Part shown: one piece after another, positions 18,035 through 37,803 of the stretch | Layout of the letters: each line of letters starts with the position of its first letter | Numbering within the stretch: position 1 is the stretch's first letter | Assembly (NCBI RefSeq): GCF_000026225.1 | Contig: NC_011740.1 | Coordinates: 4,161,576 to 4,225,575, forward strand | Direction: 5' to 3' | Length of the DNA stretch: 64,000 bases | Source of the DNA: Escherichia fergusonii ATCC 35469 | Lineage (GTDB): Bacteria > Pseudomonadota > Gammaproteobacteria > Enterobacterales > Enterobacteriaceae | Notes under the pieces: model-generated | Databases searched by the model: none | The model's input: only the letters and a program-made list of their open reading frames with translations | Told to the model about the DNA's origin: nothing | Translations under genes and position numbers: made by a program

Positions 18035-18076
18035 TAATCCCTGGTAATATTTGTTTTCGTAAAAAGGATTTACTTT

Positions 18077-20429: not shown

Positions 20430-20969
20430 ATGACAAAACTCACCCTACAAGAACAGTTGCTAAAAGCGGGATTAGTGACCAGCAAAAAAGCAGCTAAAGT
20501 CCAGAGAACGGCTAAAAAATCTCGTGTTCAGGCTCGTGAAGCCCGAGAGGCGGTGGAAGAAAACAAGAAAGCTCAACTCGAGCGTGATAAACAACTTAGC
20601 GAGCAGCAAAAACAAGCTGCGTTAGTGAAAGAATATAAAGCACAAATTAAACAGCTTATTGAAATGAATCGTATCACTGTTTCTCGTGGTGATATTGGTT
20701 TTAATTTCACTGATAATAATCTTATCAAGAAAATTGAAGTTGATAAAACAACTCAAACCCAATTAATAAATGGGCGCCTTGCTATTGCTCGTTTGATCAT
20801 TGATAGCAATGGGGAAAGCGAATACGCCATTATCCCGGCGAGCGTAGCAGATAAAATTGCCCAACGTGATGCGACTTTTATTGTATTAAATAGCGCACTC
20901 AGCCAGGAAGAGCAGGACGAAGATGATCCCTATGCTGACTTTAAGATCCCCGATGATTTAATGTGGTGA
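20430..20969 (+). CDS. Conserved hypothetical protein, Lys/Glu-rich; possibly DUF2058/YaiL-like
   Basis: About 179 aa from MTKLTLQEQLLKAGLV (the track ORF starts 18 codons earlier). The family assignment is a weak recollection. Confidence 0.5.
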   Translation: MTKLTLQEQLLKAGLVTSKKAAKVQRTAKKSRVQAREAREAVEENKKAQLERDKQLSEQQKQAALVKEYKAQIKQLIEMNRITVSRGDIGFNFTDNNLIKKIEVDKTTQTQLINGRLAIARLIIDSNGESEYAIIPASVADKIAQRDATFIVLNSALSQEEQDEDDPYADFKIPDDLMW

Positions 20970-20977
20970 TTTTTATT

Positions 20978-21001
20978 ATGAGCGCCTGATTGGGCGCTCA
21001 T
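20978..21001. terminator. Bidirectional stem-loop between the DUF gene and sorE
   Basis: ATGAGCGCCTGATTGGGCGCTCAT. Confidence 0.6.
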
Positions 21002-21121
21002 AGTATTAACCACCAATATTTATTGTGGATGCGACGTAAACGTCTTATTCAGGTTGCAAACTCTCGCAAATTCAATATATGGCACGCCCCATCCAGGCCT
21101 GGCTACCTATATTTTCCTGCC

Positions 21122-22342
21122 TCAAATATGTGCGGTATTCGCCAGTAAATACTGTTCAGCTTCCCGACACCAGATGCCCTGATGGCGGTCGAGGATCTCA
21201 CGTAGTTGTGGATCGTTAATTTGATCAAGAGCGATTAATGGCAGTGATTTATGGGTATAGACCAGTTTCTTTCCTCCGCCAATCTCTGGCAGAGCCAGCG
21301 TCGTTTCTCCAGCCGTATTCAGTCCCAGAATATGCGTAACGACTTTCGCTGCCTGAACTTTTTTCTCTTCAATCAATTTAACGGCCGCTCGCATATCATC
21401 AGTGTTGCCACCAGATGTGCCAACGTAATGCGTAAAGGCGTAATGCAGATCATAAAAATTAATGGGAGCACTGAAGTTTTTATCCTGCGGACCAGCAAAG
21501 AAATTCAGACAACCATCTGTCGCCAGCAAGGAAGAGGCAAGTTTCACAAGACCTTCGTTGGGAACAAAGACAAAAACATCATCGAAACCATGACCGCCAC
21601 TCAATGCCATTAATGTATCAAATGATGCATCAGCGGCATTGAGATAATGAATCAGTGTTTGTGGTTCTGAAGGATAGTGCTTACGTGCATAGCTCAATTT
21701 ATCGTTGTTGGTATCGGTAACGACAAGCAGCGATGGATTTATCGGGCCATGCAACGCATAGTCTATCGCCAGAAGACCCATTGGTCCGGTGCCGCCGAGG
21801 ATCAGTGTGCGTCCTTGCGGACGAATTCCCATCGTGTGGTTATAACTTCCTTCCTGAAGATGATAGTTTGCATTGAAAGCGCCAATTACACAGGAGAGCG
21901 GCTCAACCAGCGATCCTTCAAAATAGGTTTCGCCTTCATAAGCCAGCAGGCAGTCCTGTGCCATGACTTCATTTGGAATAACCACATGCGTTGCTTCGCC
22001 GCCTACCCACGGAAAGGAGTAGCCGGGGCAATCAGGGCTGTCGGGGAGTTGCAGGTTAGCCTGAATCACATAACGCTGACCCGGTTGAAATTTGTGCTGC
22101 CATTTTTTACCTACAGCAACAATATCGCCACAGAACTCGTGACCGATGATGATTGGATGAGTCGCCACATCATCAGGCACTTTTTTGTGATCTTCTCCCA
22201 GGCAAGCCTCTTTCCATGATGAGAGGCAAAGGCTGTCGGTTACTACCGTGGCGAGAATTTCATCCTCCTGCATTTCAGGAAGATCAAAGGATTCCAGGCG
22301 TAAATCACATTTGCCATAAAGACGCAGAGCCGTTGTTTGCAT
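21122..22342 (-). CDS. sorE: Zn-dependent dehydrogenase; L-sorbose-1-phosphate reductase-like
   Basis: 406-aa MDR-family ORF (GHEFCG zinc motif; GGTGPMG Rossmann motif). Last gene of a sorCDFBAME-type operon. Confidence 0.7.
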   Translation of the reverse strand: MQTTALRLYGKCDLRLESFDLPEMQEDEILATVVTDSLCLSSWKEACLGEDHKKVPDDVATHPIIIGHEFCGDIVAVGKKWQHKFQPGQRYVIQANLQLPDSPDCPGYSFPWVGGEATHVVIPNEVMAQDCLLAYEGETYFEGSLVEPLSCVIGAFNANYHLQEGSYNHTMGIRPQGRTLILGGTGPMGLLAIDYALHGPINPSLLVVTDTNNDKLSYARKHYPSEPQTLIHYLNAADASFDTLMALSGGHGFDDVFVFVPNEGLVKLASSLLATDGCLNFFAGPQDKNFSAPINFYDLHYAFTHYVGTSGGNTDDMRAAVKLIEEKKVQAAKVVTHILGLNTAGETTLALPEIGGGKKLVYTHKSLPLIALDQINDPQLREILDRHQGIWCREAEQYLLANTAHI

Positions 22343-22395
22343 ATAACCACCTCTTGTGTGAGCGATGGCCCCGGTAGTTAAACCGGGGCGAAGAA

Positions 22396-23220
22396 TCAGG
22401 ACAGGAAGCCCAGTGCGTTACCGACAATCCCTAAGCCAAACAGAGCAAAGATGAGCCACACCGGATTAATTTTTTTGTTAAGCAGACGCACCATCAGCAG
22501 AGTCAGGCCAAGCGCCAGCAAACCCGGGCACAACTGATCGAGAATGTTTTGCACGGTCATGGTGACGGTGGAGCTATCGGGGCCTGGTGTTTGAGAAACA
22601 ACCAACGGTACATTGATCGACGTCCATTTGGTGACCAGTACACCCATCACAAACAGACCGAGAATTGACGCACCTTCGGTGAGCTTTTGCAGCAAATTCC
22701 CCCCCATATCGCTGACGATATTCACCCCTTTACGAAAGCCCAGTTGCAGCCCATACCATTTCATTGCCAGGCGCACTGCGTTGAAAATAAAGAAGAACAG
22801 CAATGGGCCAAGAATGTTGCCCGAAAGTGCTAACGATGCGCCGAGGGCAGCAGTTATTGGACGCAATGTGCCCCATACCAGCGGATCGCCGACACCGGCC
22901 AGTGGCCCCATCAGACCGACTTTGATACCGTTTATGGTGCCATCATCAATCTCTGCGCCGTTGGCGCGTGCCTCTTCCATGGCAGCGGTGACGCCAATGA
23001 CCGGGCCACACACCGCAGGCGTAGTATTGAAGAACACCAGATGGCGCTTTAGCGCGGCGACCTGGTCCTCTTTCAGTGGGTAAAGGCGCTTAATGGCGGG
23101 GATCATGTCGTAGCAAAAACCCAGCCCATGAATGCGTTCGAAGTTAAATGATGCCTGTTGCAGATTGGAGCGCAGAAACATGCTCACCAGATCGCTGCGT
23201 GTGATTTTTCTCTGTTCCAT
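22396..23220 (-). CDS. sorM: PTS mannose/sorbose-family IID component
   Basis: About 274 aa. IID family membrane protein by recall. Confidence 0.75.
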   Translation of the reverse strand: MEQRKITRSDLVSMFLRSNLQQASFNFERIHGLGFCYDMIPAIKRLYPLKEDQVAALKRHLVFFNTTPAVCGPVIGVTAAMEEARANGAEIDDGTINGIKVGLMGPLAGVGDPLVWGTLRPITAALGASLALSGNILGPLLFFFIFNAVRLAMKWYGLQLGFRKGVNIVSDMGGNLLQKLTEGASILGLFVMGVLVTKWTSINVPLVVSQTPGPDSSTVTMTVQNILDQLCPGLLALGLTLLMVRLLNKKINPVWLIFALFGLGIVGNALGFLS

Positions 23221-23230
23221 GATGGCTCCG

Positions 23231-24028
23231 TTAATCGTCAAGTTGGTCAAGAGCGGTGGAGGGGGGGACTTGCGTTTGTGGTTCGGCTTTTCGCCATTGT
23301 GGATTTAGCTGGATATAAACCAGTGCCATGATCACGCCGACACCGCCGAATGCCAGAAGACTGAGATTAAGGTAGCCACCCGCGAGGAAGCCCAGGAAGA
23401 AGAAAGGCATCAGGTATTTCACGCCCATCATGCGCAGCACCATGGCATAACCGACCACGACGATAAAGCCGCCAGCAATCTGTAATCCTCGGGTCACAAA
23501 TTCGGGGATAGCATTCAACATATTGCTCACCATATCGGCGCTGACGAACAATGAGACTATGAGCGCCGGGATGGCGACGCGTAATGCCTGCACTCCAAGC
23601 GCGGAGACATGCAGAATATCGATAGTGCGAAAGCGTGCCTCTTCTGCTGCTTTATCTGCCGCATGTTGAAACACCACGGTGATGGTGCGGGCAAATACGG
23701 TTAGTACCTGGCCCGCGGCTGCCACAGGAAGTGCGATAGCAATACCGGTAGCGATGCTTTGTTGACCAACGATTACCAGAATGGCAGAGATAATACTGGC
23801 AAGTGCTGAATCCGGAGATTGCGCCGCACCGACGTTCATCCAGCCAAGCGCTATCAATTCCAGAGTGCCACCGAGCATAATTCCGGTTTTTAAATCACCG
23901 AGAATTAAACCAATAACTGTGCAGGCGATAAGTGGGCGGTGAGTCTGAAACTCGTCCAGTACGCTGCCCATTCCGGCAATACAGGAAAATAAAAATATGG
24001 CGATAATTTGTAGGGTACTAATTTCCAT
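23231..24028 (-). CDS. sorA: PTS mannose/sorbose-family IIC component
   Basis: 265-aa polytopic membrane protein. IIC(Man) family by recall. Confidence 0.75.
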   Translation of the reverse strand: MEISTLQIIAIFLFSCIAGMGSVLDEFQTHRPLIACTVIGLILGDLKTGIMLGGTLELIALGWMNVGAAQSPDSALASIISAILVIVGQQSIATGIAIALPVAAAGQVLTVFARTITVVFQHAADKAAEEARFRTIDILHVSALGVQALRVAIPALIVSLFVSADMVSNMLNAIPEFVTRGLQIAGGFIVVVGYAMVLRMMGVKYLMPFFFLGFLAGGYLNLSLLAFGGVGVIMALVYIQLNPQWRKAEPQTQVPPSTALDQLDD

Positions 24029-24095
24029 AATTTGTCACCTTATAAGTGTACTCGTCCCTGCCTGTTAAAGCATAAATACACAGGCCTGATATTTA

Positions 24096-24587
24096 TTAAG
24101 CCGTTACGTGTTCTTTTATTTTTTCGATAATATTGATTGAAGGATCTGTCGCAACTACGCGTAAATCTAGCTTTACGCCTAATTTATCCAGTTCATAGAA
24201 TGCGTTAATATCATTCTCATCTAATGATACCGCTTTAGTTAACTGTTTTTTACCAGGGCGCCATGCCATTCCGCCAATATTTAATACATTAATATTGACG
24301 CCTTGTTTAACCATCGCCAGGGCATCTTGCGGATTGGTAAAAAGATAAAAAACGGTTTCCTCTTTATATTGCGGATTGTGATAAACGGCGACGGCTTTTT
24401 CGATATTTACCACATTAACTTTCATTCCAGGTGGTGCCGCCTGCCGTAATAATGTCCGACGCACATCATCATTAAATACATCGTCATTACAAATAATAAT
24501 CCGCTGAGCATTGGCCACTTTTGACCAGACAGTTGTTACCTGACCGTGGATCAGGCGGTCATCAATGCGGGCAAGAGTAATGTTCAT
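24096..24587 (-). CDS. sorB: PTS mannose/sorbose-family IIB component
   Basis: 163 aa with N-terminal RIDDRLIHGQV, the IIB(Man) phospho-His motif. Confidence 0.8.
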   Translation of the reverse strand: MNITLARIDDRLIHGQVTTVWSKVANAQRIIICNDDVFNDDVRRTLLRQAAPPGMKVNVVNIEKAVAVYHNPQYKEETVFYLFTNPQDALAMVKQGVNINVLNIGGMAWRPGKKQLTKAVSLDENDINAFYELDKLGVKLDLRVVATDPSINIIEKIKEHVTA

Positions 24588-24994
24588 CAGAACTCCTCGT
24601 CAGTCGTATCCGGTTGTTGCCAGATAACACAAGTTTGTGAGGCGACTTGCGTCAGGTGTACACACAGTTCATCGACATTCATACTGCTCTGGTTGTCCAC
24701 CAGTTCCAGCGCCAGAGGGAGCGATAACCCGCTCATGACACGCAGATGTGGGTTTTGCATTGCCAGTGTGGCAGCGGCATTCCATGGACTACCGCACTGT
24801 AAGTCCACGGCAATCAGCCATTCATCATGAGCGTGAATGCTTACTAACTTTTCCAGCTTATTTATGATGTCGCTGGCATTTTCTCCAGGTACAAATTCTA
24901 CGGCTACAACATTGGCGTCGCCGTACACCATCTGTACCGACTCCAGCATGGCGCAAGCTAATTTGCCATGGGCACAGAAGATTGCATTAACCAT
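24587..24994 (-). CDS. sorF: PTS mannose/sorbose-family IIA component
   Basis: 135 aa. IIA(Man) fold by recall. Start overlaps the sorB stop. Confidence 0.7.
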   Translation of the reverse strand: MVNAIFCAHGKLACAMLESVQMVYGDANVVAVEFVPGENASDIINKLEKLVSIHAHDEWLIAVDLQCGSPWNAAATLAMQNPHLRVMSGLSLPLALELVDNQSSMNVDELCVHLTQVASQTCVIWQQPDTTDEEF

Positions 24995-25003
24995 ATCACC
25001 TCC

Positions 25004-25798
25004 TTAACCGCGCGTTTTACCGCCCGCAATGTTAGTGGTTACTCCGGTGATGTAGCTGGCGCGTTCAGACAGCAGGTAGCACACAAAATCAGCGACTTCC
25101 GTGAGCCGTCCGGAGCGTCCAATGGGAATCGCGTTCTTGCTGTAGCCTTCACGCAGTTGTGCAACAGTTATGTTTCGCGTCCATGCCAGGGCTTCTTCAT
25201 ACTCTGGTGTGCGCAATCCCGTTTTTTCCAGAATCCCTGGCGCAATACCAACTACACGGTTGCCATGCTTACCCAGTTCTTTTGCCCAGGAACGGGTAAA
25301 ACTGTTCAGTGCAGCTTTGGTGGCAGCGTAGCAACTCTGGCCTTCCGAACCTTCCAGCCCGCTTTCAGAAGAGACGTTCACAATGACGCCGTCACGCTGT
25401 TTCACCATCTGCCGCGCCACCGATTGCGACATCAAAAAAACACCTTTTTGATTGATATTAACCATCTTTTCAAAAGCGGCTTCGTTAAGTTCGTACTTTC
25501 CTGCCGGGGCTTTTTCATCTACCAACAGACGCGGATAGTTAACGCCAGCGTTATTGACCAGACCATCAATCCGACCAAAACGCTGAATTATTTCCGCAAT
25601 GGTATCTGTCACTTGTTGGGCTTTGGAAATATCTGTTGGCCAGAATTGATAGCCAGCATTATTTTCACCAGTATTGATATCCACCATCTGGACGTTTGCG
25701 CCATGAGTTATTAACTCCTCGACGATAGCACTACCTATTCCCGATGCACCTCCTGTCACAATAATTATTTTGCCAGATAAGTTTAACCATGATTGCAT
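25004..25798 (-). CDS. sorD: Short-chain dehydrogenase; sorbitol-6-phosphate 2-dehydrogenase-like
   Basis: About 265 aa from MQSWLNLSGKIIIVTGGASGIG (SDR TGxxxGxG motif; YxxxK as YAATK). Confidence 0.75.
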   Translation of the reverse strand: MQSWLNLSGKIIIVTGGASGIGSAIVEELITHGANVQMVDINTGENNAGYQFWPTDISKAQQVTDTIAEIIQRFGRIDGLVNNAGVNYPRLLVDEKAPAGKYELNEAAFEKMVNINQKGVFLMSQSVARQMVKQRDGVIVNVSSESGLEGSEGQSCYAATKAALNSFTRSWAKELGKHGNRVVGIAPGILEKTGLRTPEYEEALAWTRNITVAQLREGYSKNAIPIGRSGRLTEVADFVCYLLSERASYITGVTTNIAGGKTRG

Positions 25799-25867
25799 AA
25801 TTTTCTCTCCATACAGATAAATTGATTCCCCATAAAATAAATTATGTCGAATCAAAGTAAATAGTGT

Positions 25868-26905
25868 TTATTGCAATAGTAATTCGGCGGTTTGGTAATT
25901 GGTGACTAAACAGTTAATATATTTGCCACGTAACGCACCAAGAATCCCACTTAGTTTCTCTTCTCCCATGGCAATACCAATAGAATAACGTGCATTTTTT
26001 AATTTATGGATTTCGATAGACAACGTTTTTTCGTTTATCTGCGTCTCGACGGTTGCGCCGTTAATATCATAAAAGCGAGAGCAGATATCACCGGCAATTT
26101 GCCCTGCATATAAATCATCACTCTCTTCCCGACCATAAAATGCGTGCCAGATTGCACCATCACGTATTGCAGGGGAACCTATCCCCACCAGAGCAATATC
26201 GATGTTATTCCAGTAATCTGCAATGGTGCGAAAATGTTGGGACTGCATGATACCGTTACGAATCAATGCATTATCCAGTAGTGCCGGAAAGTCTGCGAGA
26301 TGAGATTCACCTTTCAGTTTTGCAGCAGCACCGTAGGTAAGGGTGTTCACATGGTAACGGCTTTCCAGTTTTCCCGAAGGTCCCCCGATAACAGGTACAC
26401 AAATATGCTGATGTGACTGGCTGGCTGTCGATAGCCCCTCAACCATCGCCCGTACCGCACGTCCCCAGGAAAACCCGATGATATCGCCTGGCTCCAGTAG
26501 TCGTTCCAGTAGCTGTGCGCCATGTACACCCATTATTGCCAGTTGCTCTTCTTCCTGTTCTTGTTGGCAGGGCACTACCACAGCTTCTTTAAGAGCAAAT
26601 TTTTGTTTTAGCTGCTGCTCCAGCCACAAGTTATCGTTGTAGTTGTAATTGATTGCGATGGTCACTAAACCCAGTTCACGACCACGTTTAAGCAGACGAC
26701 TGATGGTCGTTCGGTAGATACCTAGCTCGCGGGCGATTTGTGCCTGAGTCATTTCTTGATCGTAATAAAGCTGCGCTATTTTCACGATCAGGCGAATATC
26801 GTCACCGTTTTCTACCGCCATACTGGCCTCCTGCACGTGCACATTTGTGCAAATCTCATTTTTTACCGCTTGATCTGATATAACCTCATCAACAGAGTGT
26901 TTCAA
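25868..26905 (-). CDS. sorC: SorC/DeoR-type sugar-phosphate-binding transcriptional regulator
   Basis: 345 aa. N-terminal HTH (MTQAQIARELGIYRTTISRLLKRGRELG) plus a sugar-binding domain. First gene of the operon. Confidence 0.75.
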   Translation of the reverse strand: MKHSVDEVISDQAVKNEICTNVHVQEASMAVENGDDIRLIVKIAQLYYDQEMTQAQIARELGIYRTTISRLLKRGRELGLVTIAINYNYNDNLWLEQQLKQKFALKEAVVVPCQQEQEEEQLAIMGVHGAQLLERLLEPGDIIGFSWGRAVRAMVEGLSTASQSHQHICVPVIGGPSGKLESRYHVNTLTYGAAAKLKGESHLADFPALLDNALIRNGIMQSQHFRTIADYWNNIDIALVGIGSPAIRDGAIWHAFYGREESDDLYAGQIAGDICSRFYDINGATVETQINEKTLSIEIHKLKNARYSIGIAMGEEKLSGILGALRGKYINCLVTNYQTAELLLQ

Positions 26906-27169
26906 AAGGATTTTTCACTATTTATCCGCAAAAAATACAAGGTTAATTGTGCACATTTGTTTTTGTGTATCGTTAAGGCAAGCACATCTGTGCGTTATTA
27001 TTTAACTGATTGATATTTATATGTATTTGTTGGTCTTGTTACTGACTTCGATGCCGCTGATTTTTGTGCAGAAAATTGTGGTGGATCACAATTAATTTCA
27101 CTGTTGCGAAGAAACGCTGTTTTTCCTGCATCAGAGTCAGGGTATATTCCGCGTTTTACAGGAGAATTT

Positions 27170-28042
27170 ATGCTGCCCGACTCATCTATCCGATTAAACA
27201 AATACATTAGCGAAAGTGGAATTTGCTCACGACGCGAAGCGGATCGCTTTATTGAACAAGGCAATGTGTTCATCAATGGCAAACGTGCCACCATTGGCGA
27301 CCAGGTTAAACCAGGCGACGTCGTGAAGGTAAATGGTCGGTTGATTGAGCCGCGTGAAGCAGAAGACTTAGTGCTTATTGCTCTGAACAAACCTGTAGGG
27401 ATCGTTAGTACTACGGAAGATGGCGAGCGCGACAACATCGTTGATTTCGTCAACCACAGTAAACGCGTGTTCCCGATAGGTCGTCTGGATAAAGACTCTC
27501 AGGGGCTGATTTTTCTCACTAACCATGGCGATCTGGTCAATAAGATCCTGCGTGCTGGCAATGATCATGAAAAAGAGTATCTGGTGACGGTCGATAAACC
27601 GATCACCGATGAATTTATTCGTGGTATGGGGGCGGGAGTACCGATCCTCGGAACGGTGACGAAAAAGTGCAAAGTCAAAAAAGAAGCACCATTTGTCTTT
27701 CGCATTACCCTTGTGCAGGGGCTGAACCGTCAGATCCGGCGCATGTGCGAGCACTTTGGTTACGAAGTGAAAAAGCTGGAACGTACGCGCATTATGAACG
27801 TCAGCTTAAGCGGCATTCCGTTGGGTGAGTGGCGCGATTTAACCGACGATGAGCTAATTGATCTCTTTAAATTAATTGAGAATTCTACTTCCGAGGTGAA
27901 ACCTAAAGCGAAGGCCAAACCGAAAACGGCGGGCATCAAACGCCCGGTGGTGAAGATGGAAAAAACATCAGAAAAAGGTGGCCGCCCGGCGTCAAATGGT
28001 AAACGTTTCACCTCGCCGGGGCGTAAGAAAAAAGGGCGCTAA
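27170..28042 (+). CDS. rluF: 23S rRNA pseudouridine(2604) synthase
   Basis: 290 aa from [25 protein letters not shown] (S4 domain) with catalytic [20 protein letters not shown]. Confidence 0.85.
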
Positions 28043-28240
28043 TCAGCGCCTGCCGCGCGTCGACGTATTTGCCGACCAGCTAAATGACGCTTCGGGATCG
28101 GGTTTATAAGCCTGCTTTTTCTTCAACTGGCGGGCTTTTTTCGCTTCAGCCTCACGTTCAACCATTAATTTATCGATGTACTCTTTCTTGATGCTGTTGG
28201 TTTCGGAGTTTGTCAGTACGCGACCATGCGCAATACGCGC
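27526..28240. repeat. Direct repeat copy 1 (~715 bp): rluF 3' two-thirds plus yjbD 3' three-quarters
   Basis: Matches 30118..30832 with a single mismatch seen (27556 c versus 30148 t). A further ~25 bp beyond is about 70% similar. Confidence 0.9.
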
Positions 28241-28267
28241 GCGAACCAGCAGCGTTTTAGCTCGCAT
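28043..28267 (-). pseudogene. yjbD (DUF3811) copy with a replaced N-terminus; junction of the GT island
   Basis: The 74-aa ORF is identical to the downstream full yjbD from ARIAHGRVLTN onward. Its first ~10 residues (MRAKTLLVRA) are unrelated because the repeat ends at 28240. Confidence 0.7.
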
Positions 28268-28317
28268 TGCTTGTTAATATTACTTTTAGCAAATAAAATA
28301 GAACGTTTTCCATATTT

Positions 28318-29460
28318 TTAGCTAAACCAGTTACTCAATGTTTTTTCAAATTTATGAGTAACTTGCCACCACAAATAATTTTCCAGAACAAATTTTTTTC
28401 CGCACTGTGCAGTATTAAGTAGATCAGAATTAGCAAGTACTGTTTCAATATCTGCTGCAATCGTTTCGGGTGTCATTGGTTCTTGTAAATGATATCCAGT
28501 TTCTTTATCTTTTACGAATTCAACCATTCCTCCACGAGTGCTCACCAATACCGGTTTTCCTGAGCCCATAGCTTCTATTGCTACCATACAAAATGGTTCC
28601 TGAAATTGAGAAGGAATAACAACTAAATCAGCTAAAGAATAATATTGATGCATTTCTTCAGGAGCAACTCCTCCTAACATATGACAGTGTGAACCGAGTT
28701 GTTTAGCTAATTTTTGAATTTGCTGTTGGTAAGCTCCTTTTTCTCCCTTACTTTTGTTTGTATAATCACCTATAACAACCAATTCTATATTATCATGAGA
28801 TCTAACAATTTTTTCAAATGCTTGCATAAGTAAAATAACTCCTTTTTCAGGAGATATCCTTCCTGCATAAAATATAATTTTTTTATCAGGGGGTATATTT
28901 AGATCTGCTTTTTTGATTTTCTTATGCTGTTTATCCATATTATATAAAGTTGTTCCATTTGGAACTATAGCGATTTCAGCATCAGGAAGAAATCCTTTAT
29001 AGTAGTTTTTTAAATAATTACTGGGAACAATCATTTTCACATTCTTATCCATCCCTCTTGGTTCATAAGCGTTATGCATATGCATTACTATTTTGGCATG
29101 AGGTGAGCGCTCGCGAATCTGACGATATAACTTCATGCTATTATGTACAATAATTACACTATCATCTGTAATGTTGAAATTTTTAGCAATATTCAAAATT
29201 CTTTGGGAATAAGGAAGTGGATCTATACGTGTCCATTTCTGAAATACACGTTTATAAATTCGACTAAATCCAATGCGATGAATTGAGCATCGTTCATTGA
29301 CAGTAGTAACGTCAGAATACCCATCTTCTTTTATACAAATAATTCTGTTCGGTATTCTTGTCATTTTAGCAACCTGATAAATCCAGGTTTCTACTGCAGC
29401 GGCGCCACGTGGAGGAATGGAAAAAATTGGTGTAACAGTGAAAATTATTTTATCAACCAT
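28318..29460 (-). CDS. Family-4 (GT-B, retaining) glycosyltransferase; horizontally acquired
   Basis: 380 aa. C-terminal EPFCMVAIEAMGSGKPVLVSTRGGMVEF is the GT4 E-x7-E region. Estimated by eye at about 30% GC. Confidence 0.8.
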   Translation of the reverse strand: MVDKIIFTVTPIFSIPPRGAAAVETWIYQVAKMTRIPNRIICIKEDGYSDVTTVNERCSIHRIGFSRIYKRVFQKWTRIDPLPYSQRILNIAKNFNITDDSVIIVHNSMKLYRQIRERSPHAKIVMHMHNAYEPRGMDKNVKMIVPSNYLKNYYKGFLPDAEIAIVPNGTTLYNMDKQHKKIKKADLNIPPDKKIIFYAGRISPEKGVILLMQAFEKIVRSHDNIELVVIGDYTNKSKGEKGAYQQQIQKLAKQLGSHCHMLGGVAPEEMHQYYSLADLVVIPSQFQEPFCMVAIEAMGSGKPVLVSTRGGMVEFVKDKETGYHLQEPMTPETIAADIETVLANSDLLNTAQCGKKFVLENYLWWQVTHKFEKTLSNWFS

Positions 29461-29502
29461 GAATTATTATCCTTTTCAATCGTTATTTTGCGGTGTTGAA
29501 TT

Positions 29503-29646
29503 TTAATAAAAATGAGAGTTGATTGTATGTATGAATGTTGATTTATTTAAGCACCAGCCTTTGTGTTGTGCTAACAGCAACGTGTTATCTGACCCATTTT
29601 TATTAGTGATAATCTTACTTTCCCGGAGGAATGAGACACTAAACAT
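29503..29646 (-). pseudogene. 5' remnant of a gene homologous to the start of the 33391..34119 glycosyltransferase-like gene
   Basis: The 47-codon ORF MFSVSFLRESKIIT... aligns with MFIVSVLRQSKDFT... of the downstream gene. The flanking ~115 bp of upstream DNA is about 70% identical between the two loci. Confidence 0.5.
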
Positions 29647-30117
29647 GCTGTTTCCTTGCATCGTCAGTTAGGAGACTAAAGGACAAACTATATTTGAAGT
29701 GATTTATAACGCAATATCTTTGTGCTTAAAAAAATGATTTTATTTGTTGTGCAAATACATTATGCAAATTAATTTGTTTTGTAAATGTGTTATTATCTGA
29801 CTCTGCGTCGTAACTCAGTTTATTACTATAAAAAAGGACATTGTGCTCGGCGTTATTGTTTTTAAAAAATCACTAGCTGGTGGACTGGTGGCTCAATAAA
29901 TCTTTCAGTTTCGGAACAGTTATAAAAAACCTTGCAGTTTGGCTACTGAAAAAGTTAAGCAAGAAATCAAAGGGGTCGCAATGGTTTACGAATCCTGCTA
30001 GCTGAAAGCTGTGCCGACCATATCTACATACTCGTAGACATCCCTCTGAAGATGAGTGTGTAGAGTTTCATGTGATATTTGAAGGGGAAAAGCAAGTCTG
30101 ATGCTTCATGAGCAGTT

Positions 30118-30634
30118 TGGCGATCTGGTCAATAAGATCCTGCGTGTTGGCAATGATCATGAAAAAGAGTATCTGGTGACGGTCGATAAACCGATCACCG
30201 ATGAATTTATTCGTGGTATGGGGGCGGGAGTACCGATCCTCGGAACGGTGACGAAAAAGTGCAAAGTCAAAAAAGAAGCACCATTTGTCTTTCGCATTAC
30301 CCTTGTGCAGGGGCTGAACCGTCAGATCCGGCGCATGTGCGAGCACTTTGGTTACGAAGTGAAAAAGCTGGAACGTACGCGCATTATGAACGTCAGCTTA
30401 AGCGGCATTCCGTTGGGTGAGTGGCGCGATTTAACCGACGATGAGCTAATTGATCTCTTTAAATTAATTGAGAATTCTACTTCCGAGGTGAAACCTAAAG
30501 CGAAGGCCAAACCGAAAACGGCGGGCATCAAACGCCCGGTGGTGAAGATGGAAAAAACATCAGAAAAAGGTGGCCGCCCGGCGTCAAATGGTAAACGTTT
30601 CACCTCGCCGGGGCGTAAGAAAAAAGGGCGCTAA
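30118..30634 (+). pseudogene. 5'-truncated rluF fragment (direct repeat copy 2); lacks the S4 domain and the catalytic Asp motif
   Basis: Identical to the rluF 3' region (residues GDLVNKIL... to the end). The new 5 N-terminal residues are created by the junction. Confidence 0.85.
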
Positions 30635-30832
30635 TCAGCGCCTGCCGCGCGTCGACGTATTTGCCGACCAGCTAAATGACGCTTCGGGATCGGGTTTATA
30701 AGCCTGCTTTTTCTTCAACTGGCGGGCTTTTTTCGCTTCAGCCTCACGTTCAACCATTAATTTATCGATGTACTCTTTCTTGATGCTGTTGGTTTCGGAG
30801 TTTGTCAGTACGCGACCATGCGCAATACGCGC
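30118..30832. repeat. Direct repeat copy 2 (~715 bp)
   Basis: See copy 1. Confidence 0.9.
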
Positions 30833-30907
30833 CCGATCCAGCAGTGTTTTAAGTTCACGTTGCTCGCGCTCAGTCATCTCTTTTTGGGTAATACGCGGGA
30901 GTGCCAT
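30635..30907 (-). CDS. yjbD: DUF3811 family protein, full length
   Basis: 90 aa, MALPRITQKEMTEREQRELKTLLDRARIAHGRVL.... Matches YjbD by recall. Confidence 0.75.
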   Translation of the reverse strand: MALPRITQKEMTEREQRELKTLLDRARIAHGRVLTNSETNSIKKEYIDKLMVEREAEAKKARQLKKKQAYKPDPEASFSWSANTSTRGRR

Positions 30908-31436
30908 AGATGTTGCCCTCAGTTAGCCGATGGATTCAGTGTACGGGAATTCATTTGCAAGCAGAACTGATAATATTCCTTTGTTCTCTTCTTAAATATT
31001 TATCTTTCTTGATAATTGACGATAAATACAGATACAAATTTGGTGAAAAAATTTCCCGCTACAAACAACAGTAATTTATTAACTCTTTATTTTTCATTTG
31101 GTTAAAAATATTTCTCAATTCTGGCACGCTTTTCGCAATAACAATTTTGCGTTGATACTGAATTTCAAAGGGGGTTAAACCCCGTCGGCACACCAGGAAC
31201 GGCCAGGCTGTTTTCCGGGCGTGTTCCGTCAGCCTTTGACGCTAATTACGGGTTCGATTCCCGAATTCATTCCTGAAATGAATACTGGTTGTAACTTATT
31301 AAATAAAAAATGGGGGATTGCGCAGTCAGCGATCCCCGATAACGTCGCCGATAAAGACGCCGGGATACAGGCAAAAGGGAATTCCCCTGTCTCTTCGTGT
31401 CTGCTTCCGCGACAGCTATTAAGCAAGGAATAGATA

Positions 31437-32564
31437 ATGATTAAAAAAATAAGCGTAAGAAAAGATCAGCTGGCATTACTCTCCAGAAATGGCGATTACT
31501 ACAAAGTGCTGCATGCAGGCGAGCATCTTTTACCCTGGTTAAATACGCCAGAAGTCTTGCTGATTACGCTCGATGGCAGCGAAGTTCCCGACGTGCTGGC
31601 GGATTATTTGCGCCGCTTTCAGCCTGATTGGGTGGAAAGATATTGCGTGGTGGCCGACTTGTCGGAGACTGAAGCCGGGGCGTTGTATATGGACGGTATT
31701 TTGCTGGAGATCCTGCCGCCATCAACGCGTCGTTTGTACTGGCGTGTAGAGGATGATTTGACGCTTGTGCGGATGAATACGCAGCAAGTCCAGGTTCAAA
31801 CGGAGGTGATGAATGCGGTATTGCAGCCACGGCGCAAAGGGGCAGTTAAAGGCCGCGATGCGATACTGACGGTGCAGGTTCCGGCCTGGCACGTAGGCGT
31901 GCTGAAAATCGATGGTGAAACGCAGGCGCTGTTACCGCCGGGGCTGACCGCATACTGGAAAATAAATCATCTGGTTGAAGCTGAAGTTGTCGACACCCGC
32001 TTACAGGTTCTGGAAGTCAGCGGGCAAGAAATCTTAACGAAAGATAAGGTCAATCTGCGGATTAACCTCGCAGCTAACTGGCGCTACAGCGACGTGTTAT
32101 TGGCATTTAGTCAGTTAACGAAGCCGGTTGATCATTTGTATCGGGAATTGCAATTTGCACTGCGTGAAGCTGTAGGTACGCGTACGCTGGATGAATTACT
32201 GGAAGATAAACAGGTCATTGATGACGTTGTCAGCGAACAGGTGAAATCGCGCATGTTGCCATTTGGTATGGAGATTGCCTCATTAGGGGTGAAAGATATC
32301 GTCCTGCCTGGTGATATGAAAAATATCCTTGCGCAGCTGGTTGAGGCAGAGAAATCTGCGCAGGCCAATGTGATTCGCCGACGTGAAGAAACGGCAGCGA
32401 CGCGCTCGTTGCTGAACACCGCGAAGGTCATGGAAAACAACCCGGTAGCGCTGCGTTTAAAAGAGCTGGAAACGCTGGAGAGAGTGGCTGAGCGGATCGA
32501 TAACATCTCTGTATTTGGCGGTCTGGACCAGGTTCTGCACGGGTTAGTTAATATCAAAGGATGA
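31437..32564 (+). CDS. SPFH/band-7 (stomatin/prohibitin/flotillin-like) domain protein without an N-terminal membrane anchor
   Basis: 375 aa. The band-7 core is recognisable from residue ~150 on. The first 30 residues are not hydrophobic. Confidence 0.65.
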   Translation: MIKKISVRKDQLALLSRNGDYYKVLHAGEHLLPWLNTPEVLLITLDGSEVPDVLADYLRRFQPDWVERYCVVADLSETEAGALYMDGILLEILPPSTRRLYWRVEDDLTLVRMNTQQVQVQTEVMNAVLQPRRKGAVKGRDAILTVQVPAWHVGVLKIDGETQALLPPGLTAYWKINHLVEAEVVDTRLQVLEVSGQEILTKDKVNLRINLAANWRYSDVLLAFSQLTKPVDHLYRELQFALREAVGTRTLDELLEDKQVIDDVVSEQVKSRMLPFGMEIASLGVKDIVLPGDMKNILAQLVEAEKSAQANVIRRREETAATRSLLNTAKVMENNPVALRLKELETLERVAERIDNISVFGGLDQVLHGLVNIKG

Positions 32565-33361
32565 GTCAAATGCCAATAAATGGAGTCAGTGCTGCGATGC
32601 GCGAACGGGTATCGCAGCAATTAAAAGAAATAGAACGTCGCTATGGCGTGAAAGTGCTGTACGCCTGCGAATCGGGGAGTCGCGGTTGGGGATTTGCCTC
32701 TCCCGACAGCGACTACGATGTACGATTTTTGTATGTTCACCCGCTGGAATGGTATCTGCGGGTGGAGGCGCCGCGCGATGTTATTGAGTTGCCTATTGAC
32801 GACGAGTTAGATGTTTCAGGCTGGGAGTGGCGCAAGGCGCTGGGATTACTGAAAGGAGCGAATCCGACGCTGATAGAATGGCTGGATTCTCCGGTGGTCT
32901 ATCAACAAGATGAAGAAACGATAACGCCGCTTAAGGCAATGGTGCCGAAGTGGTTTTCTCCGCTGCGTGCGCGTTGGCATTATTATTCGATGGCGCGGAA
33001 AAACTTTCGCGGTTATTTGCAGGGCGACGTAGTTCGGCTGAAAAAATACTTTTACGTGCTGCGACCACTACTGGCTGTGCGTTGGGTTGAAGCGGGAAAA
33101 GGCGTACCGCCAATGCGCTTTGCCGAGTTACTGGCGGGAAGCGAGCTTGATGCACCGTTACGTGCAGAAATAGACGAACTGCTGGAACGTAAACAGCGCG
33201 CGGGAGAAGCGGAATATGGTCCGCGCCGTCCTTTGTTACATGCGTTTATTCGTGTGGAACTGGCGCGTGGGGAAATTCCACCAGTGTTACCGGACAGCAG
33301 GGACGGAGATGCCAGGGAACTGGATGGGTTGTTGTATCAAACAGTGATACGCCGGGCGTGA
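32561..33361 (+). CDS. Minimal (Pol-beta superfamily) nucleotidyltransferase with a C-terminal helical domain
   Basis: 266 aa. N-terminal GSRGWGFASPDSDYDV is the classic hG[GS]...D-x-D NTase motif. ATGA start/stop overlap with the SPFH gene. Confidence 0.65.
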   Translation: MSQMPINGVSAAMRERVSQQLKEIERRYGVKVLYACESGSRGWGFASPDSDYDVRFLYVHPLEWYLRVEAPRDVIELPIDDELDVSGWEWRKALGLLKGANPTLIEWLDSPVVYQQDEETITPLKAMVPKWFSPLRARWHYYSMARKNFRGYLQGDVVRLKKYFYVLRPLLAVRWVEAGKGVPPMRFAELLAGSELDAPLRAEIDELLERKQRAGEAEYGPRRPLLHAFIRVELARGEIPPVLPDSRDGDARELDGLLYQTVIRRA

Positions 33362-33372
33362 TGCCCGGCGCC
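33350..33372. terminator. Stem-loop between convergent genes
   Basis: GCCGGGCGTGATGCCCGGC followed by GCCTTCC. Confidence 0.5.
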
Positions 33373-33390
33373 TTCCAATAAAAAAGTTTT

Positions 33391-34119
33391 TTACCGAAGA
33401 GAATATTTGAGCTGTTTAAATTTGCTGCAGAGTGTGTTTTTTATGCTGAAACCTGGAACCCAGTGGAGAGCTGTGTTCCAGGGACGAGGTGAACCGTGAA
33501 AACATACAATTTTTGCATCCGATGGCAATTCTCCGTTTGCTTTACCATCGTGTAAGTCAGGATTAAAGCCTATCATTTTAGGCGTCGCTATATTCGCTTT
33601 GTAACTGATAATTTGTCCTGGAAAAATATCCTGCCATCTTTCAGCGTCATGACATACTCTGCCGATAAATCCCTGATCCCCATGATATGGCGGCTTTCTG
33701 GTTGAATTTATTTCAGTTTCAGGCGATCTCATAAACTCTTCCCAGACAAGTTTTTTGGCGTCCGCAGGAATGAACATTATTCCAGTCGCAGGAGCAGCAT
33801 TGGAACCATGCTGCGAGAAGTCGTTCAGTAATGTTACTTTTTTCATTTTAGTAAACTGTGTAATATCACCGACGATTACAGTATCAATATCAATATAAAG
33901 TATATCTTCATTCCCGATAACAGGATGTTCGGGATTAAATAGCTCTAATTTTGCCCACCATCCTGGCCAATTATACAGTAATGGAGTGGTTTGAACCCCT
34001 TTGATTTCTGAAGCATCCGTCATGCAAATGGAATTATACCCATCCAGCTGCTGGTGAAGCCATTGTGCATGTTTAATAGTGAAATCCTTACTTTGTCTGA
34101 GAACTGAGACAATAAACAT
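33391..34119 (-). CDS. Hypothetical DxD-motif protein, possible GT-A-like glycosyltransferase; AT-rich
   Basis: 242 aa. ILYIDIDTVIVGD gives a DxD after a hydrophobic beta-strand. Last gene after the tail-fiber module. Low GC. Confidence 0.4.
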   Translation of the reverse strand: MFIVSVLRQSKDFTIKHAQWLHQQLDGYNSICMTDASEIKGVQTTPLLYNWPGWWAKLELFNPEHPVIGNEDILYIDIDTVIVGDITQFTKMKKVTLLNDFSQHGSNAAPATGIMFIPADAKKLVWEEFMRSPETEINSTRKPPYHGDQGFIGRVCHDAERWQDIFPGQIISYKANIATPKMIGFNPDLHDGKANGELPSDAKIVCFHGSPRPWNTALHWVPGFSIKNTLCSKFKQLKYSLR

Positions 34120-34332
34120 GTAATTTCCCTGTAGCGATTAGCAAAATATATAAGTAGTGAACTATATTTGATGTAATTTACAATGCAATAGTTATTGTAT
34201 TTAAATTCTTCTATATTCACTCAGTGGATGGTTAATATGGAAATATAATTACTGTGAATATTTATAAGCATGTGCTTTGTTTGTGATGGAATATACAGCC
34301 TGATTAAAGCCGGGCTTGAAGCCCGGCGTAGT

Positions 34333-34788
34333 TTATGGTTGATATTGCCAACTGTTAACTAAAGCGTACAAGTGGTTTGGGGAATAGCGCCAACTTTCTT
34401 TTAATTGCAGAAATTCGGCACAAAATTCGCTACAAAACAGGCGATCGCGCTGTTCTTTATTGCCGGTGATAATTCCTAAGGCTCCACGCCAGTCGTATTT
34501 TTTGCCATCATGTTTACGGAAAAAAGCTTCTACATCCTGAAGGCTGACCTGGAGCGGCAGCATATCCCACTTGTCTGGCGGTAAAGGCATTATCTTTCCA
34601 CGAACGCCGCGATCGCGCAGAGAGGCGGAGTAACAAAGGTAACTCTTTTCTCCATGTGCTACGGCTAATTCACAGTGGGAATAACTGCCGCGAGTGATTT
34701 TGCGTGTAAGCCAGTCAGCCAGTCTCGCAATAACCCGGTGCTCTGTTCGCCCTTTATAGCAAGCGAGCCAGACTGTAGTTTTACTCAT
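34333..34788 (-). CDS. YiiX/YaeF-like permuted papain-fold (NlpC/P60 superfamily, C92-like) protein
   Basis: 151 aa. GKKYDW...LFCSEFC and SHCELAV match the YiiX catalytic Cys/His context by recall. ATGA overlap with the upstream tfa gene. Confidence 0.5.
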   Translation of the reverse strand: MSKTTVWLACYKGRTEHRVIARLADWLTRKITRGSYSHCELAVAHGEKSYLCYSASLRDRGVRGKIMPLPPDKWDMLPLQVSLQDVEAFFRKHDGKKYDWRGALGIITGNKEQRDRLFCSEFCAEFLQLKESWRYSPNHLYALVNSWQYQP

Positions 34789-35492
34789 GGTTGCCAGCCT
34801 GTTGAATAATCGTAGTCGAGTACCGACTGAATATCGTCCAGAGCTTCCACCGCCGCGATATGGCGTTGGGCGTTGGCAAACAAGCGTATATCGTGATCCA
34901 TTGTGACGGATTCAAACTGGGCAGCGATTTCGTTGGTTAACTCAGTCAGACCATTATTTTTAGTTTTCCACATTAAACCTGGCGGAATTTTTTTCTCCGC
35001 TCCCATTTTTGTGAGTGAGAGTTGTTGGATGCGGCTGCTTGTATCACTGTGGAAGTAATTGTCGTTGATGATGATGTAGTCGGTAGTGATGGAGTCGCGC
35101 AATGTTTTGATTTCGGCACATTTCGCCTGTTTAGCATCATCAATTGATGGCTGCCATTTTTCGCCATCCCAACGCTCAAAAGTACTGGTAGGGGAAATGA
35201 TGGTGACAGTTTCAGGCAATTGACCCAATTTATTAATAATAATCTGGCTGCCATCAACTTTGTTATAAACAGTTTGGCCTCGATGATCTTCAATAAGTTC
35301 CCATTTATTAATTGACCATATAGAAGTAAAACCTGCAATTTTTTGTGGTGGTGGTGTTAATGTGCAGTAATTCGGTAGTCCAGTGTTTGGTGCTATATAT
35401 ACATTGGACTCACCAATAAATTCTTGTGTGTCTGGTGAAAAATTAAAAACAGATAAAATTTGTGCGTTATCGGAAAAAGTAAAAGTATTCAT
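34785..35492 (-). CDS. Phage tail fiber assembly protein (Tfa / gpG / Mu U-like)
   Basis: 235 aa. Tfa family by recall. Overlaps the tail fiber stop. Confidence 0.75.
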
Positions 35493-37069
35493 GCAAGCCT
35501 CACAATATAATTGAATGCAATGTTTTTAACAGTATTTTCTGTATTGCCAGTGTTATTGATGATAATTGAGTGATTATGTGTACCTAACACAATATTATGT
35601 GTATGACTTCCCAGTGCGATTGTATGTGCATGGGCGCCAATCGTAATACTATGATAATGACTACCAGCAGACTCAGTAGGTTCTCTGTAGTTCTCATCTG
35701 AATTGGGGCTGTTCCATAAAGACGGTCCATCTTTACCTTCTGCACCATCAGTTGGTATTCGGTGTGTATGTTCTCCAGATGTGCTTGTATTTCTACTTCC
35801 ATGATTAAATGAAGCTGTAGTTTTTGTTCCTAAGTCCGTAGAGGTAGATGTTATTGTCCCTAAATTGGTACTAGAAATACTGCCCGTATGGTTATGTGAT
35901 TTAACTCCATCCAGTTCAGTAGATAATATAGCGCGCCCACTGGATGGTTTTCCTTTAATTATCCATCCGCGCATATCAGGAATAACGCCAGATGGATATG
36001 CAATTGCCAGTTTGGGATAGGAGGTTTTATTAAATGTCTGACCAGTCATCAGAGCGTAGCCTGAAGGTACAGAATCAGATGGCCAGGGTATAGGCATCCC
36101 TACAGGACAGCTTTCCGCAGCAATAGCCTTATCCATCGCTGCCTTAACCGCGTTCGGCGTTGCAGCTTCCGTCGTACTGGTGCTGTTGGTCGCATTATTA
36201 AGTTTCACGACCCCTTTTTGTGTCAGCGTACCGTCGGGGATACCTGTTATTTGCCCCCAGGCATGGGTATGGCTGGACGGTGCCGCAGCAATAGCCTTGT
36301 CCATCGCTGCTTTAACAGCACTTGGCGTTGCAGCTTCCGTTGTACTGGTGCTATTTGTTGTGTTGTTAAGTTTAACGACTCCTTTCTGCGTCAGTGTACC
36401 ATCAGGGATACCAGTAATCTGACTCCAGGCATGATTATGACTGGTGGCAGCTTTGCTATTTGCCAGGTCATATGCCGTTTTTACCGCTTTTGGCGTGGCC
36501 GCTTTGGTTTCATCATCGCTATTAGTCGCATTACTCAGCTGCGTAAAACCTTTTTGTGTCAGCGTCGCATCAGGATGATTTCGTGATTGCTGATGTGTTT
36601 TCAACGCGTCATCGACATATTCCCTGGTTGCCACAACGACTGAAGGGTCGATCAAAAGCGTCACCGCATCTGCATTGGTGACTTCCATGACCGCGCGTAT
36701 AACGATTTGCTTACTGGCCCCCGCAGGTAATCGTGGCTTATAGGTTTCAGGGATTTTTCCGATAGCGACCAGCGTGCCGTCGGTATCCAGTAACCCAACT
36801 TCGCGTACATACCAGCCTCCGACTTGTTCGGGAATAATCGCTTCCGCGATAACCCAGGCCGGATTATCTGGCGCAATTTTTAACGTATTGAGCTGACCAC
36901 GCCAGACCTCATGGACTACTTTAGTCTGACTTTCTGTCGGTTCGATATATTTACCATTACCGTCGCCAACTACCATAGTTTGCAGACGGATCTGTTTTTG
37001 CTCCGTCAATGCAGAGGCAATTTTGGCTTTGCCTGCAGTAGTTAATATTGTAAAAAATTCACTTGCCAT
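35489..37069 (-). CDS. Phage tail fiber protein (P2 gpH / Mu S / lambda Stf-like) with tandem repeats and a His-rich C-terminus
   Basis: About 526 aa from [21 protein letters not shown] (SD GGAGGA; the track ORF starts 41 codons earlier, inside gpI). Two 168-bp tandem repeats. C-terminal HxH-rich tip. Confidence 0.8.
36117..36452. repeat. 2 x 168-bp tandem repeat inside the tail-fiber gene, plus a degenerate third unit to ~36620
   Basis: GCAGCAATAGCCTT[A/G]TCCATCGCTGC... recurs at 36117 and 36285. Encodes a ~56-aa repeat ([24 protein letters not shown]...[18 protein letters not shown]). Confidence 0.85.
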
Positions 37070-37803
37070 TATTCCTCCGGATATACAGACATAATTTCGG
37101 TGCTCCAGTATCCTGTGCCGACCTTCATCGGTTGGGATTGTGTAAGGCGATCGGGTTGATAAGGTAGTAGTTGGATATATTCCTCCACACAATAACCCGT
37201 CGCTAAAAATATTCCTGATGACTGGCTGAGGCTTTCTGCAACAGGAGGCAATACTGTAATGACTTCCCCTCCTTGCATGGCGCTGCCAATAACTGGTATT
37301 GGGCTTCGATTAATAAGCCAAATAACAATGCTTTCCAGCTTTGAACGAACATTTTTATATTCATGAATTAATGTGATAAGTGCATTGAATTCATCTTCAT
37401 TTAATCCTTTTTCCTCTAGTGTAATATTTACCTTAAAAAAATAAGCCCTTCCCCCATATTCAAACCATTCTGAAATAGTTCCGGGTAAGGAAAGTATTTC
37501 CAGCACCCGCCGTACCGCCCAAATTGTTCCTTTATATTTATGCAGTTCAATGGCTTGTTTAATTAACTCGCGCTTCTCCCGCTCATCGGTGGTAAATAAC
37601 CAACCTTCCAGCCCCTGAACGTGAAATTGTTCTGCAAGGGCTGGTAATGCCGAAGCATCAACCAGGTCGACCAGATAAACCATCAACGCCGTCAGATCGA
37701 GTTGGGCAAAACGCTCGGCGGCGATGTTTGCCAGAATCGAAAAACGCTCATCGCTGGCAAGCGGCGGCGGTGGCAGCAATTTATCCATCGCTGACTCCGG
37801 CAA
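37069..37803 (-). CDS. Baseplate protein (P2 gpI / Mu gp48-like)
   Basis: 244 aa. Its stop overlaps the tail-fiber start (TAATG). Position follows the J-like gene. Confidence 0.65.

Follow-up and report, generated by a model that had tools for sequence, protein, structure and literature searches.

How does a single accessory gene come to lie between two nearly identical copies of the ends of two neighbouring genes, and is such an arrangement young or old? This question is raised by a locus in a 64,000-nucleotide stretch of the Escherichia fergusonii ATCC 35469 chromosome (NC_011740.1, positions 4,161,576 to 4,225,575), which is referred to here as the window and whose own numbering is used throughout. 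A gene for a family 4 glycosyltransferase (GT4; the GT gene) is bracketed by a 715-bp direct repeat that holds the 3´ end of rluF and most of yjbD (Table 1). The locus is an old insertion-duplication that is polymorphic, either present or absent, within E. fergusonii. It probably marks the seam of two divergent rluF-yjbD haplotypes, which would have been brought together by one illegitimate join and a homologous exchange.

The duplicated rluF-yjbD end and its distribution

The two repeat copies are offset by 2592 bp, align gap-free and differ at a single site (C at 27555, T at 30147). To the left of the repeat, the two sequences are unrelated. Beyond its right end, weaker similarity extends for ~25 bp, with three mismatches in 28241-28260, a 1-nt deletion and a few matches to ~28265. 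The gene order is full rluF, a yjbD fragment (yjbD´), the GT gene, an AT-rich stretch, an rluF fragment (´rluF) and full yjbD. The original prediction, which was made from the letters of the window, had described both the near-identical repeat and this order, and they are borne out by alignment and by checks of open reading frames (ORFs), Pfam and NCBIfam. Its single mismatch also stands, although it had been placed off by one (27556/30148). Three features were absent from it: an IS200 remnant in ~250 bp of the AT-rich stretch, a ~221-bp deletion in the left yjbD, and the polymorphism at the species level. Residues 4-74 of the yjbD´ ORF align to residues 20-90 of YjbD (NCBIfam PRK10515). The fragment corresponds to YjbD residues 19-90 past the 1-nt deletion, which lies in a run of A, and its start codon is new; it is probably a decaying duplicate. 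It lies 50 bp downstream of the GT gene and in the same orientation. Neither the S4 domain nor the upstream region with the GRLD motif is retained in the ´rluF fragment, which is therefore a pseudogene.

Table 1. Features of the rluF-yjbD locus, in window coordinates.
Feature	Position	Strand	Description
Intact rluF	27170-28042	+	23S rRNA pseudouridine-2604 synthase, 290 aa; NCBIfam PRK10475, 604 bits (cutoff 318); Pfam S4 and PseudoU_synth_2
Left repeat copy (R_L)	27526-28240	.	517 bp of the rluF 3´ end and 198 bp of the yjbD 3´ end
yjbD´ fragment	28043-28267	-	74-aa ORF; Pfam DUF3811, positions 17-88 of 88
Left junction	28241-28317	-	Unhomogenised 5´ remnant of the left yjbD (28241 to ~28265) and remnant of the GT-yjbD spacer
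WaaK/RfaK-family GT4 gene	28318-29460	-	380 aa; 29-36% GC
AT-rich stretch between GT gene and right repeat	29461-30117		657 bp
Conserved GT 5´ region	29461-29804	-	Shares homology with the region upstream of the GT gene in E. albertii and L011 (as far as 29745) and in L026 (as far as 29804)
Segment with no homologue found in similarity searches of the AT-rich stretch	29805-29865	.	~60 bp
IS200 (IS200/IS605 family) remnant	29866-30126	+	Two pieces with 80% nucleotide identity to E. coli IS200
Illegitimate junction	30118-30126	+	Microhomology TGG(C/G)GATCT of IS200 tnpA and rluF
Right repeat copy (R_R)	30118-30832	.	Matches 27526-28240
´rluF 3´ fragment	30118-30634	+	C-terminal 172 aa; PRK10475 positions 118-290 only
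Intact yjbD	30635-30907	-	DUF3811, 90 aa; protein identical to the common E. coli YjbD

In E. fergusonii, the GT protein has the accession CAQ91509.1. The window is only ~91% identical to E. coli, and by megablast the insert (28241-30117) matched none of 5426 complete E. coli genomes. An assembly collection indexes the exact GT protein in 83 blocks, and all ten of the loci fetched (L001-L010) share the arrangement. Together with L048 and L049, at least 12 further assemblies have the same layout, several complete genomes among them; the single-chromosome records of 4.5-4.7 Mb that carry it include L001, L002, L048 and L049. L007 is identical to the window across 23170-34500. Within individual genomes, the two copies differ at 1 (window, L005, L007), 11 (L001), 21 (L006), 22 (L004), 25 (L049), 26 (L002, L003, L008) or 45 (L048) of the 715 sites.

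With these assemblies at hand, an artefact, that is, the false expansion of a single rluF-yjbD copy, has next to no chance of being the explanation. Near-identical 715-bp repeats can confuse short-read assemblers, but the arrangement occurs in independent assemblies, single-chromosome records among them, and one of these loci is identical to the window. The copies hold strain-specific haplotypes, and the sequence at both junctions, the IS200 fusion and the yjbD deletion, is unique. A very recent entry of a circle carrying the repeat and the GT gene into the rluF-yjbD locus of this strain, by a Campbell-type single crossover, would give the observed topology of repeat, insert and repeat and would suit copies that differ at just 1 of 715 sites. 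It is nevertheless very improbable. The same structure and junctions are found in many strains with 11-45 site differences, and the insert shows as much diversity as the core flank. Near-identity is limited to the window, L005 and L007, and the left copy of the window (W_L) is the common allele of right and single copies, which points to secondary homogenisation. The original prediction had left open whether the repeat is very recent or kept identical by gene conversion, and it had raised the possibility of an assembly artefact. Related genomes with the same arrangement and diverged copies, which it had named as the observation that would count against it, were looked for and found; recency and artefact fall with them, and gene conversion fits the data.

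Among the strains that carry the GT gene (GT+), the insert differs from that of the window by 0-8 single-nucleotide polymorphisms in 1877 bp, and the left flank differs by 10-19 in 4356 bp. Because insert diversity is similar to left-flank diversity, the GT+ allele appears to be about as old as the sampled diversity of E. fergusonii. A look-up with the exact RluF protein, which also returned the GT+ loci L048 and L049, gave E. fergusonii loci with a single-copy rluF-yjbD-slipin arrangement and no GT gene (L041-L047 and L050); in their left flank, they match the window at 99.6% identity. A look-up with the exact full YjbD gave E. coli contexts only, in which the locus layout is variable, because the E. 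fergusonii YjbD protein is identical to that of E. coli.

Junctions and the meeting of two haplotypes

The right junction contains an IS200 remnant that surfaced only in a sensitive 'distant' nucleotide search and was missed by megablast. Positions 29923-29992 and 29987-30126 align to E. coli IS200 at 80-81% (E=2e-14 and 2e-32). The two pieces span the 5´ untranslated region, the start codon and tnpA codons ~50-96, with an internal deletion of 136 bp. A sub-threshold Rfam match to STnc490 at 29868-29970 (E=0.013) puts the left end of the element near 29866; the Rfam scan otherwise gave just a chance tmRNA fragment. The likeness to IS200 thus covers the 5´ untranslated region, the start codon and mid-tnpA at 80% nucleotide identity, together with the weak STnc490 match. 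In contrast to a functional element, it is a dead remnant with in-frame stop codons, without the 3´ half and right end, and with neither an intact Y1 transposase nor both subterminal ends. Its 3´ half has been replaced by rluF, and it was not an agent of rearrangement by transposition.

The IS200 homology enters the repeat. In a three-way alignment, the fused sequence follows IS200 through TTTGG and then rluF from TGGCGATCTGG. Both IS200 tnpA and rluF encode G-D-L at this point, and the fusion is in frame. The right junction is an illegitimate join at a microhomology of 3-9 bp. The fusion ORF (30101-30634) encodes 177 aa (MLHEQFGDL/VNKIL..., with the slash at the join), lacks RluF upstream of residue ~118 and is annotated as a protein in some records.

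The left junction was compared with E. albertii, in which window positions 24000-28269 and 28267-29745 align to positions 13683-9418 and 9196-7728 of L022. Relative to E. albertii, E. fergusonii lacks ~221 bp that comprise the GT-yjbD spacer and about the first 15 yjbD codons. The endpoints of this deletion fall in the imperfect repeat AACAA(A/C)GC(A/G)A, and given a loss of ~221 bp on the left, the original duplication would therefore have been ~840 bp long. At four sites, the left yjbD remnant matches the allele of cryptic-clade Escherichia where the right copy is E. coli-like. The remnant past the repeat end therefore derives from a diverged yjbD allele, as had been suspected from the ~25 bp of weaker similarity.

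Ancestry along the locus was scored at sites that differ between E. coli and E. albertii. By this measure, E. fergusonii resembles E. albertii between 25800 and 27538 and E. coli from 27592 on; in the sor regulator, 9-22 E. albertii-like sites stand against 0-8 E. coli-like sites per 100 bp. The switch in ancestry falls within the repeat, 13-66 bp from its left end, and its position is the same in GT-less strains. Identity to E. coli is 92% in metH-yjbB (15500-20328) and 91.9% from R_R through yjbD and slipin to RlaP (30119-33370), and it is 75-80% in the sor operon. In GT+ chromosomes, DNA unlike E. coli extends from ~20330 to the IS200 junction, and E. coli-like sequence resumes exactly at the truncated rluF. 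This block has flanks that are ~92% identical to E. coli on both sides, and the actual point of homologous crossover was not located. The part from ~20330 to 27540, which comprises a DUF2058 gene, the L-sorbose phosphotransferase system operon and the 5´ part of rluF, is 75-86% identical to E. coli with affinity to E. albertii; pepE, which is sited here in many E. coli, is absent from it.

The probable origin of the locus can be reconstructed from two haplotypes. One would have had the order (DUF2058 gene)-sorbose operon-rluF-yjbD-GT-IS200, unlike E. coli and with affinity to E. albertii and the cryptic clades. The other would have been rluF-yjbD-slipin-RlaP, ~92% identical to E. coli. A microhomology join may have connected codon ~96 of the IS200 tnpA upstream of the GT gene to rluF at the position of 27526, with a homologous crossover elsewhere. 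Because both haplotypes carried convergent rluF and yjbD gene ends, the ~840 bp would have been duplicated as homeologous copies. Comparison with E. albertii then suggests that the ~221-bp deletion, also at microhomology, trimmed the 5´ end of the redundant left yjbD.

Homology-facilitated illegitimate recombination is a process described in Acinetobacter and pneumococcus. Merodiploids generated by transformation are documented in Streptococcus pneumoniae (PMC3784515). The proposed event shares with both that one homologous exchange would be combined with one join at 3-9 bp of microhomology, which is present here as TGG(C/G)GATCT, that part of a locus is duplicated and that an insertion sequence lies in the join. 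It differs in that a natural, old allele has persisted throughout one species of non-competent enterobacterium. Furthermore, the pneumococcal merodiploids use the homology of insertion sequence repeats, whereas IS200 provided only chance microhomology here.

The same junction would also suit an ancient Campbell integration, in which a linear rluF´-yjbD-GT-IS200´ segment was circularised by microhomology end-joining and then entered a GT-less ancestral locus by a single crossover. This course of events yields the exact topology, with TGG(C/G)GATCT as the closure junction. The left yjbD remnant is of the foreign allele type, and the synonymous divergence (dS) of the GT gene to E. albertii is about one third of that of flanking genes, so that the GT gene moved between lineages. 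We consider an ancient circle unlikely, since two rare steps are needed and neither the ancestry switch within 13-66 bp of the repeat left end, GT-less strains included, nor the continuous non-E. coli-like DNA from the sor operon to the IS200 junction is accounted for. In addition, no replication, integrase or mobilisation gene and no plasmid or phage function was found among the ORFs and Pfam matches in 28241-30117. The locus thus resembles a Campbell integration in that direct target repeats bracket the insert and a pop-out would restore a single copy, but it has no circular element, replication function or integrase, the event is old, and a linear one-ended event fits equally or better. Of the Campbell-type footprint that had been suggested earlier, the duplicated homology around the insert remains; a circle is not needed, as the right junction is a microhomology join within IS200 tnpA.

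Microhomology at join points is typical of RecA-independent tandem duplications. An intrachromosomal tandem duplication of the segment from the repeat through yjbD and the GT gene to IS200´, formed by microhomology between sister chromosomes, would account for the observed IS200 tnpA/rluF junction, provided that the second GT gene was later replaced by the slipin haplotype. This origin is improbable: the replacement is an extra step, and the copies would have started identical, yet the remnant at the left edge is of another allele type than the right copy. A genome with two GT copies was not seen among the GT+ and single-copy loci examined.

Exchange between the repeat copies

For a comparison of the repeat across strains, 13 left (L), 11 right (R) and 8 single-copy (S) sequences were aligned. 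Inside the repeat, L and R copies show 0 fixed differences and 25 shared polymorphisms. W_L is identical to L006_R, L045_S and L047_S; L049_R is identical to L002_R and close to L046_S; and L044_S is identical to L001_L and L049_L. Within genomes, the differences are clustered, with a maximum chi-square permutation p<=0.002 in four of six genomes (L001, L002, L006 and L049). The edge differences (28241, 28245 and the 1-nt indel) are identical across the four left copies that were aligned (window, L002, L004 and L048). At repeat sites 601-715, most L copies have 0/6 E. coli-specific states and most R copies have 3-4/6; the left copy of the window is of the R type. Taken by their sequences, the copies are indicated to have begun as diverged alleles whose interior was exchanged both ways.

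The window and L006 differ in 26.5-31.5 kb almost only at ~21 sites, which lie at the right end of the left copy. This pattern indicates that in the lineage of the window the right end of the left copy may have been overwritten by sequence of the right-copy type, and the copies of the window would be nearly identical because they were later homogenised. T at 30147 is private to the window, L005 and L007, where it is found in the right copy, and appears to be a later substitution. A cassette that moves between strains with breakpoints inside the repeat was also considered and rejected; L005 is identical to the window over ~5 kb (26.5-31.5 kb), a block that continues past the repeats.

Concerted evolution by gene conversion is known for tufA/tufB and for rRNA operons. 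The repeat behaves similarly: its interior is homogenised, polymorphisms are shared without fixed differences, and mosaic tracts are sharply limited at the ends of homology. In contrast to those genes, each copy here combines one functional and one truncated gene end (rluF is functional on the left, yjbD on the right). Moreover, the repeats flank a dispensable accessory gene, so that a crossover yields presence/absence variation.

In the reconstruction from two haplotypes, the population data would reflect repeated homogenisation of the repeat interiors in both directions, with the edges kept distinct. The right end of the left copy would have been replaced by the right-copy type in the lineage of the window, followed by the one substitution at 30147. 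If the two copies recombined with each other through RecA, the GT gene would be excised cleanly and a GT-less single-copy allele would be left. The GT-less alleles that are common in the species are probably such pop-out products, or were converted from the duplicated state; they are best read in this manner because the ancestry switch sits at the left end of the repeat.

Several points weigh against this reconstruction. The putative parental haplotype, in which the IS200 upstream of the GT gene would still be intact, was not found in any genome. The E. albertii-like site at 27538 lies 12 bp within the repeat, so that breakpoint and repeat end coincide only approximately. Loss of the GT gene by pop-out would be scarless, with the breakpoint coincidence as its only mark. 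The resident haplotype is not singled out by dS gradients, by lysC as a yardstick or by site patterns. The association between position and haplotype at the right end of the repeat comes from ~7 independent genome groups and is not significant alone. Finally, the homogenisation could be intragenomic gene conversion or allelic replacement through single-copy strains, and the data fit both.

A bolder idea is that the repeat-GT-repeat unit serves as a reversible, RecA-driven gain/loss cassette for modification of the lipopolysaccharide (LPS) core, which we regard as quite doubtful. If so, clean pop-out would be frequent, and the gene could re-enter any single-copy rluF-yjbD locus through the same repeats. 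The LPS core would then be subject to bet-hedging against phages or against the R-type tailocin-like particles encoded ~3 kb away, and homogenisation of the repeat would tune the switching rate.

No description of the rluF-yjbD-GT locus was found in a literature search. The locus is a well-resolved new example of known processes, namely illegitimate recombination, concerted evolution and repeat-mediated presence/absence variation. It offers a natural example of how a one-ended illegitimate join of two alleles creates a segmental duplication, how gene conversion masks the age of the duplication and how the repeats can then drive the presence or absence of an accessory LPS gene. For genome scanning, it is a caution that near-identical repeats need not mean a recent event.

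The WaaK-like glycosyltransferase and neighbouring elements

The GT protein matches NCBIfam PRK15484 (LPS N-acetylglucosaminyltransferase, WaaK/RfaK) with 701.7 bits (cutoff 618) over residues 1-379 of 380. It is 68-76% identical in amino acids to Salmonella LPS N-acetylglucosamine (GlcNAc) transferases, matches Pfam Glycos_transf_1 (1.7e-40), the C-terminal domain of retaining GT4 transferases, and has the EX7E motif EPFCMVAIE at residues 288-296. A PDB sequence search gave generic GT4 folds only. A search of genome contigs with the protein gave three loci, from E. coli (72%), Buttiauxella and a planctomycete, and none from E. fergusonii. WaaK (RfaK) is the LPS outer-core alpha-1,2-N-acetylglucosaminyltransferase of Salmonella enterica and of the E. 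coli R2 core, according to Heinrichs et al. 1998 as cited in PMC13293308. The GT resembles WaaK by the full-length match above cutoff, 65-76% amino acid identity and the EX7E motif. It differs in that it lies outside the waa (rfa) cluster, between rluF/yjbD and lysC, as a lone gene that has yjbD´ on one side and the IS200 remnant on the other; the 64 kb hold no further LPS genes. If it acts as WaaK does, it would transfer alpha-1,2-GlcNAc to glucose II of the outer core.

The ratio of non-synonymous to synonymous divergence (omega) of the GT gene is ~0.14 against both relatives, and the gene is therefore under purifying selection. Its dS to E. albertii is 0.285, compared with 0.64-0.94 for the flanking rluF, yjbD and sor genes; as this value is about one third of that of its flanks, the GT gene moved between lineages after the split of E. 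fergusonii and E. albertii. Its product is predicted to be an intact, selectively maintained paralogue of the WaaK-like LPS core GlcNAc-transferases. In E. albertii, a member of the same 90%-identity cluster stands in the order rluF-yjbD(full)-GT without a duplication. In E. ruysiae and the cryptic clades, an 83% relative occurs as rluF-yjbD-GT or rluF-yjbD-RlaP-GT, adjoining a phage-tail cluster and likewise without a duplication. The description of the locus as a GT island was thus overstated, as the same gene adjoins yjbD in these lineages. One E. fergusonii strain has been typed as R2 core (PMC13293308). As the R2 core carries its own waaK, the GT is probably a second WaaK paralogue there. 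A biological payoff would follow only if this paralogue alters the LPS core and the sensitivity to phages or tailocins.

The conserved region 5´ of the GT gene is presumably its promoter region, to judge from homology; a promoter and terminator scan gave a promoter signal no higher than the shuffled expectation. In Salmonella enterica (L015-L018, GT at 8001-9143), a lone paralogue that is 76% identical is located between umuDC and an endonuclease/lpxR region, outside waa; stand-alone WaaK-like genes therefore recur in Enterobacteriaceae. In E. albertii L022, positions 6951-7733 hold a degenerate 3´ fragment of a second GT (72% to the GT of the window) and a 3´ remnant of RlaP (76%). Both have the GT upstream region on one side and the gene for tail-fibre assembly on the other, and earlier rearrangements and two GT lineages at the locus follow from them.

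A contractile-tail cluster occupies 33391-49100 on the minus strand. It encodes a sheath, tube, tape measure, P2-like baseplate, fibre, fibre-assembly protein, SLT lysozyme and Mu Gp37-like protein. Because only tail genes and no capsid, terminase or integrase ORFs were seen, the cluster looks like an R-type tailocin. In E. albertii and the cryptic clades, the WaaK-like GT gene stands directly at the fibre end of the tail cluster. An association between the GT gene and the tail cluster was sought across E. fergusonii strains and none was found; the tail cluster itself is present or absent independently.

Divergence of lysC (51233-52582) is high: its dS is ~0.9-1.0 whether the comparison is with E. 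coli, with E. albertii or with an E. ruysiae-like genome, and it is also ~0.9 between E. coli and E. albertii. It far exceeds that of the neighbouring core genes yjbD and slipin (dS 0.23-0.27 to E. coli). In L002 (12640-21143) and L008, the sor regulator is truncated by a lambdoid prophage with integrase, Kil, CIII, N, Ral and a CI-like repressor, which is inserted upstream of rluF at a distance of ~350-600 bp; in some strains, phage attachment thus also takes place beside rluF. Between yjbD and lysC, 31437-33361 and 50159-51094 encode a slipin (SPFH/Band 7), an RlaP-like nucleotidyltransferase and a zeta-toxin family protein. This trio of genes is found in some E. coli (e.g. strain E105) and is absent from others.

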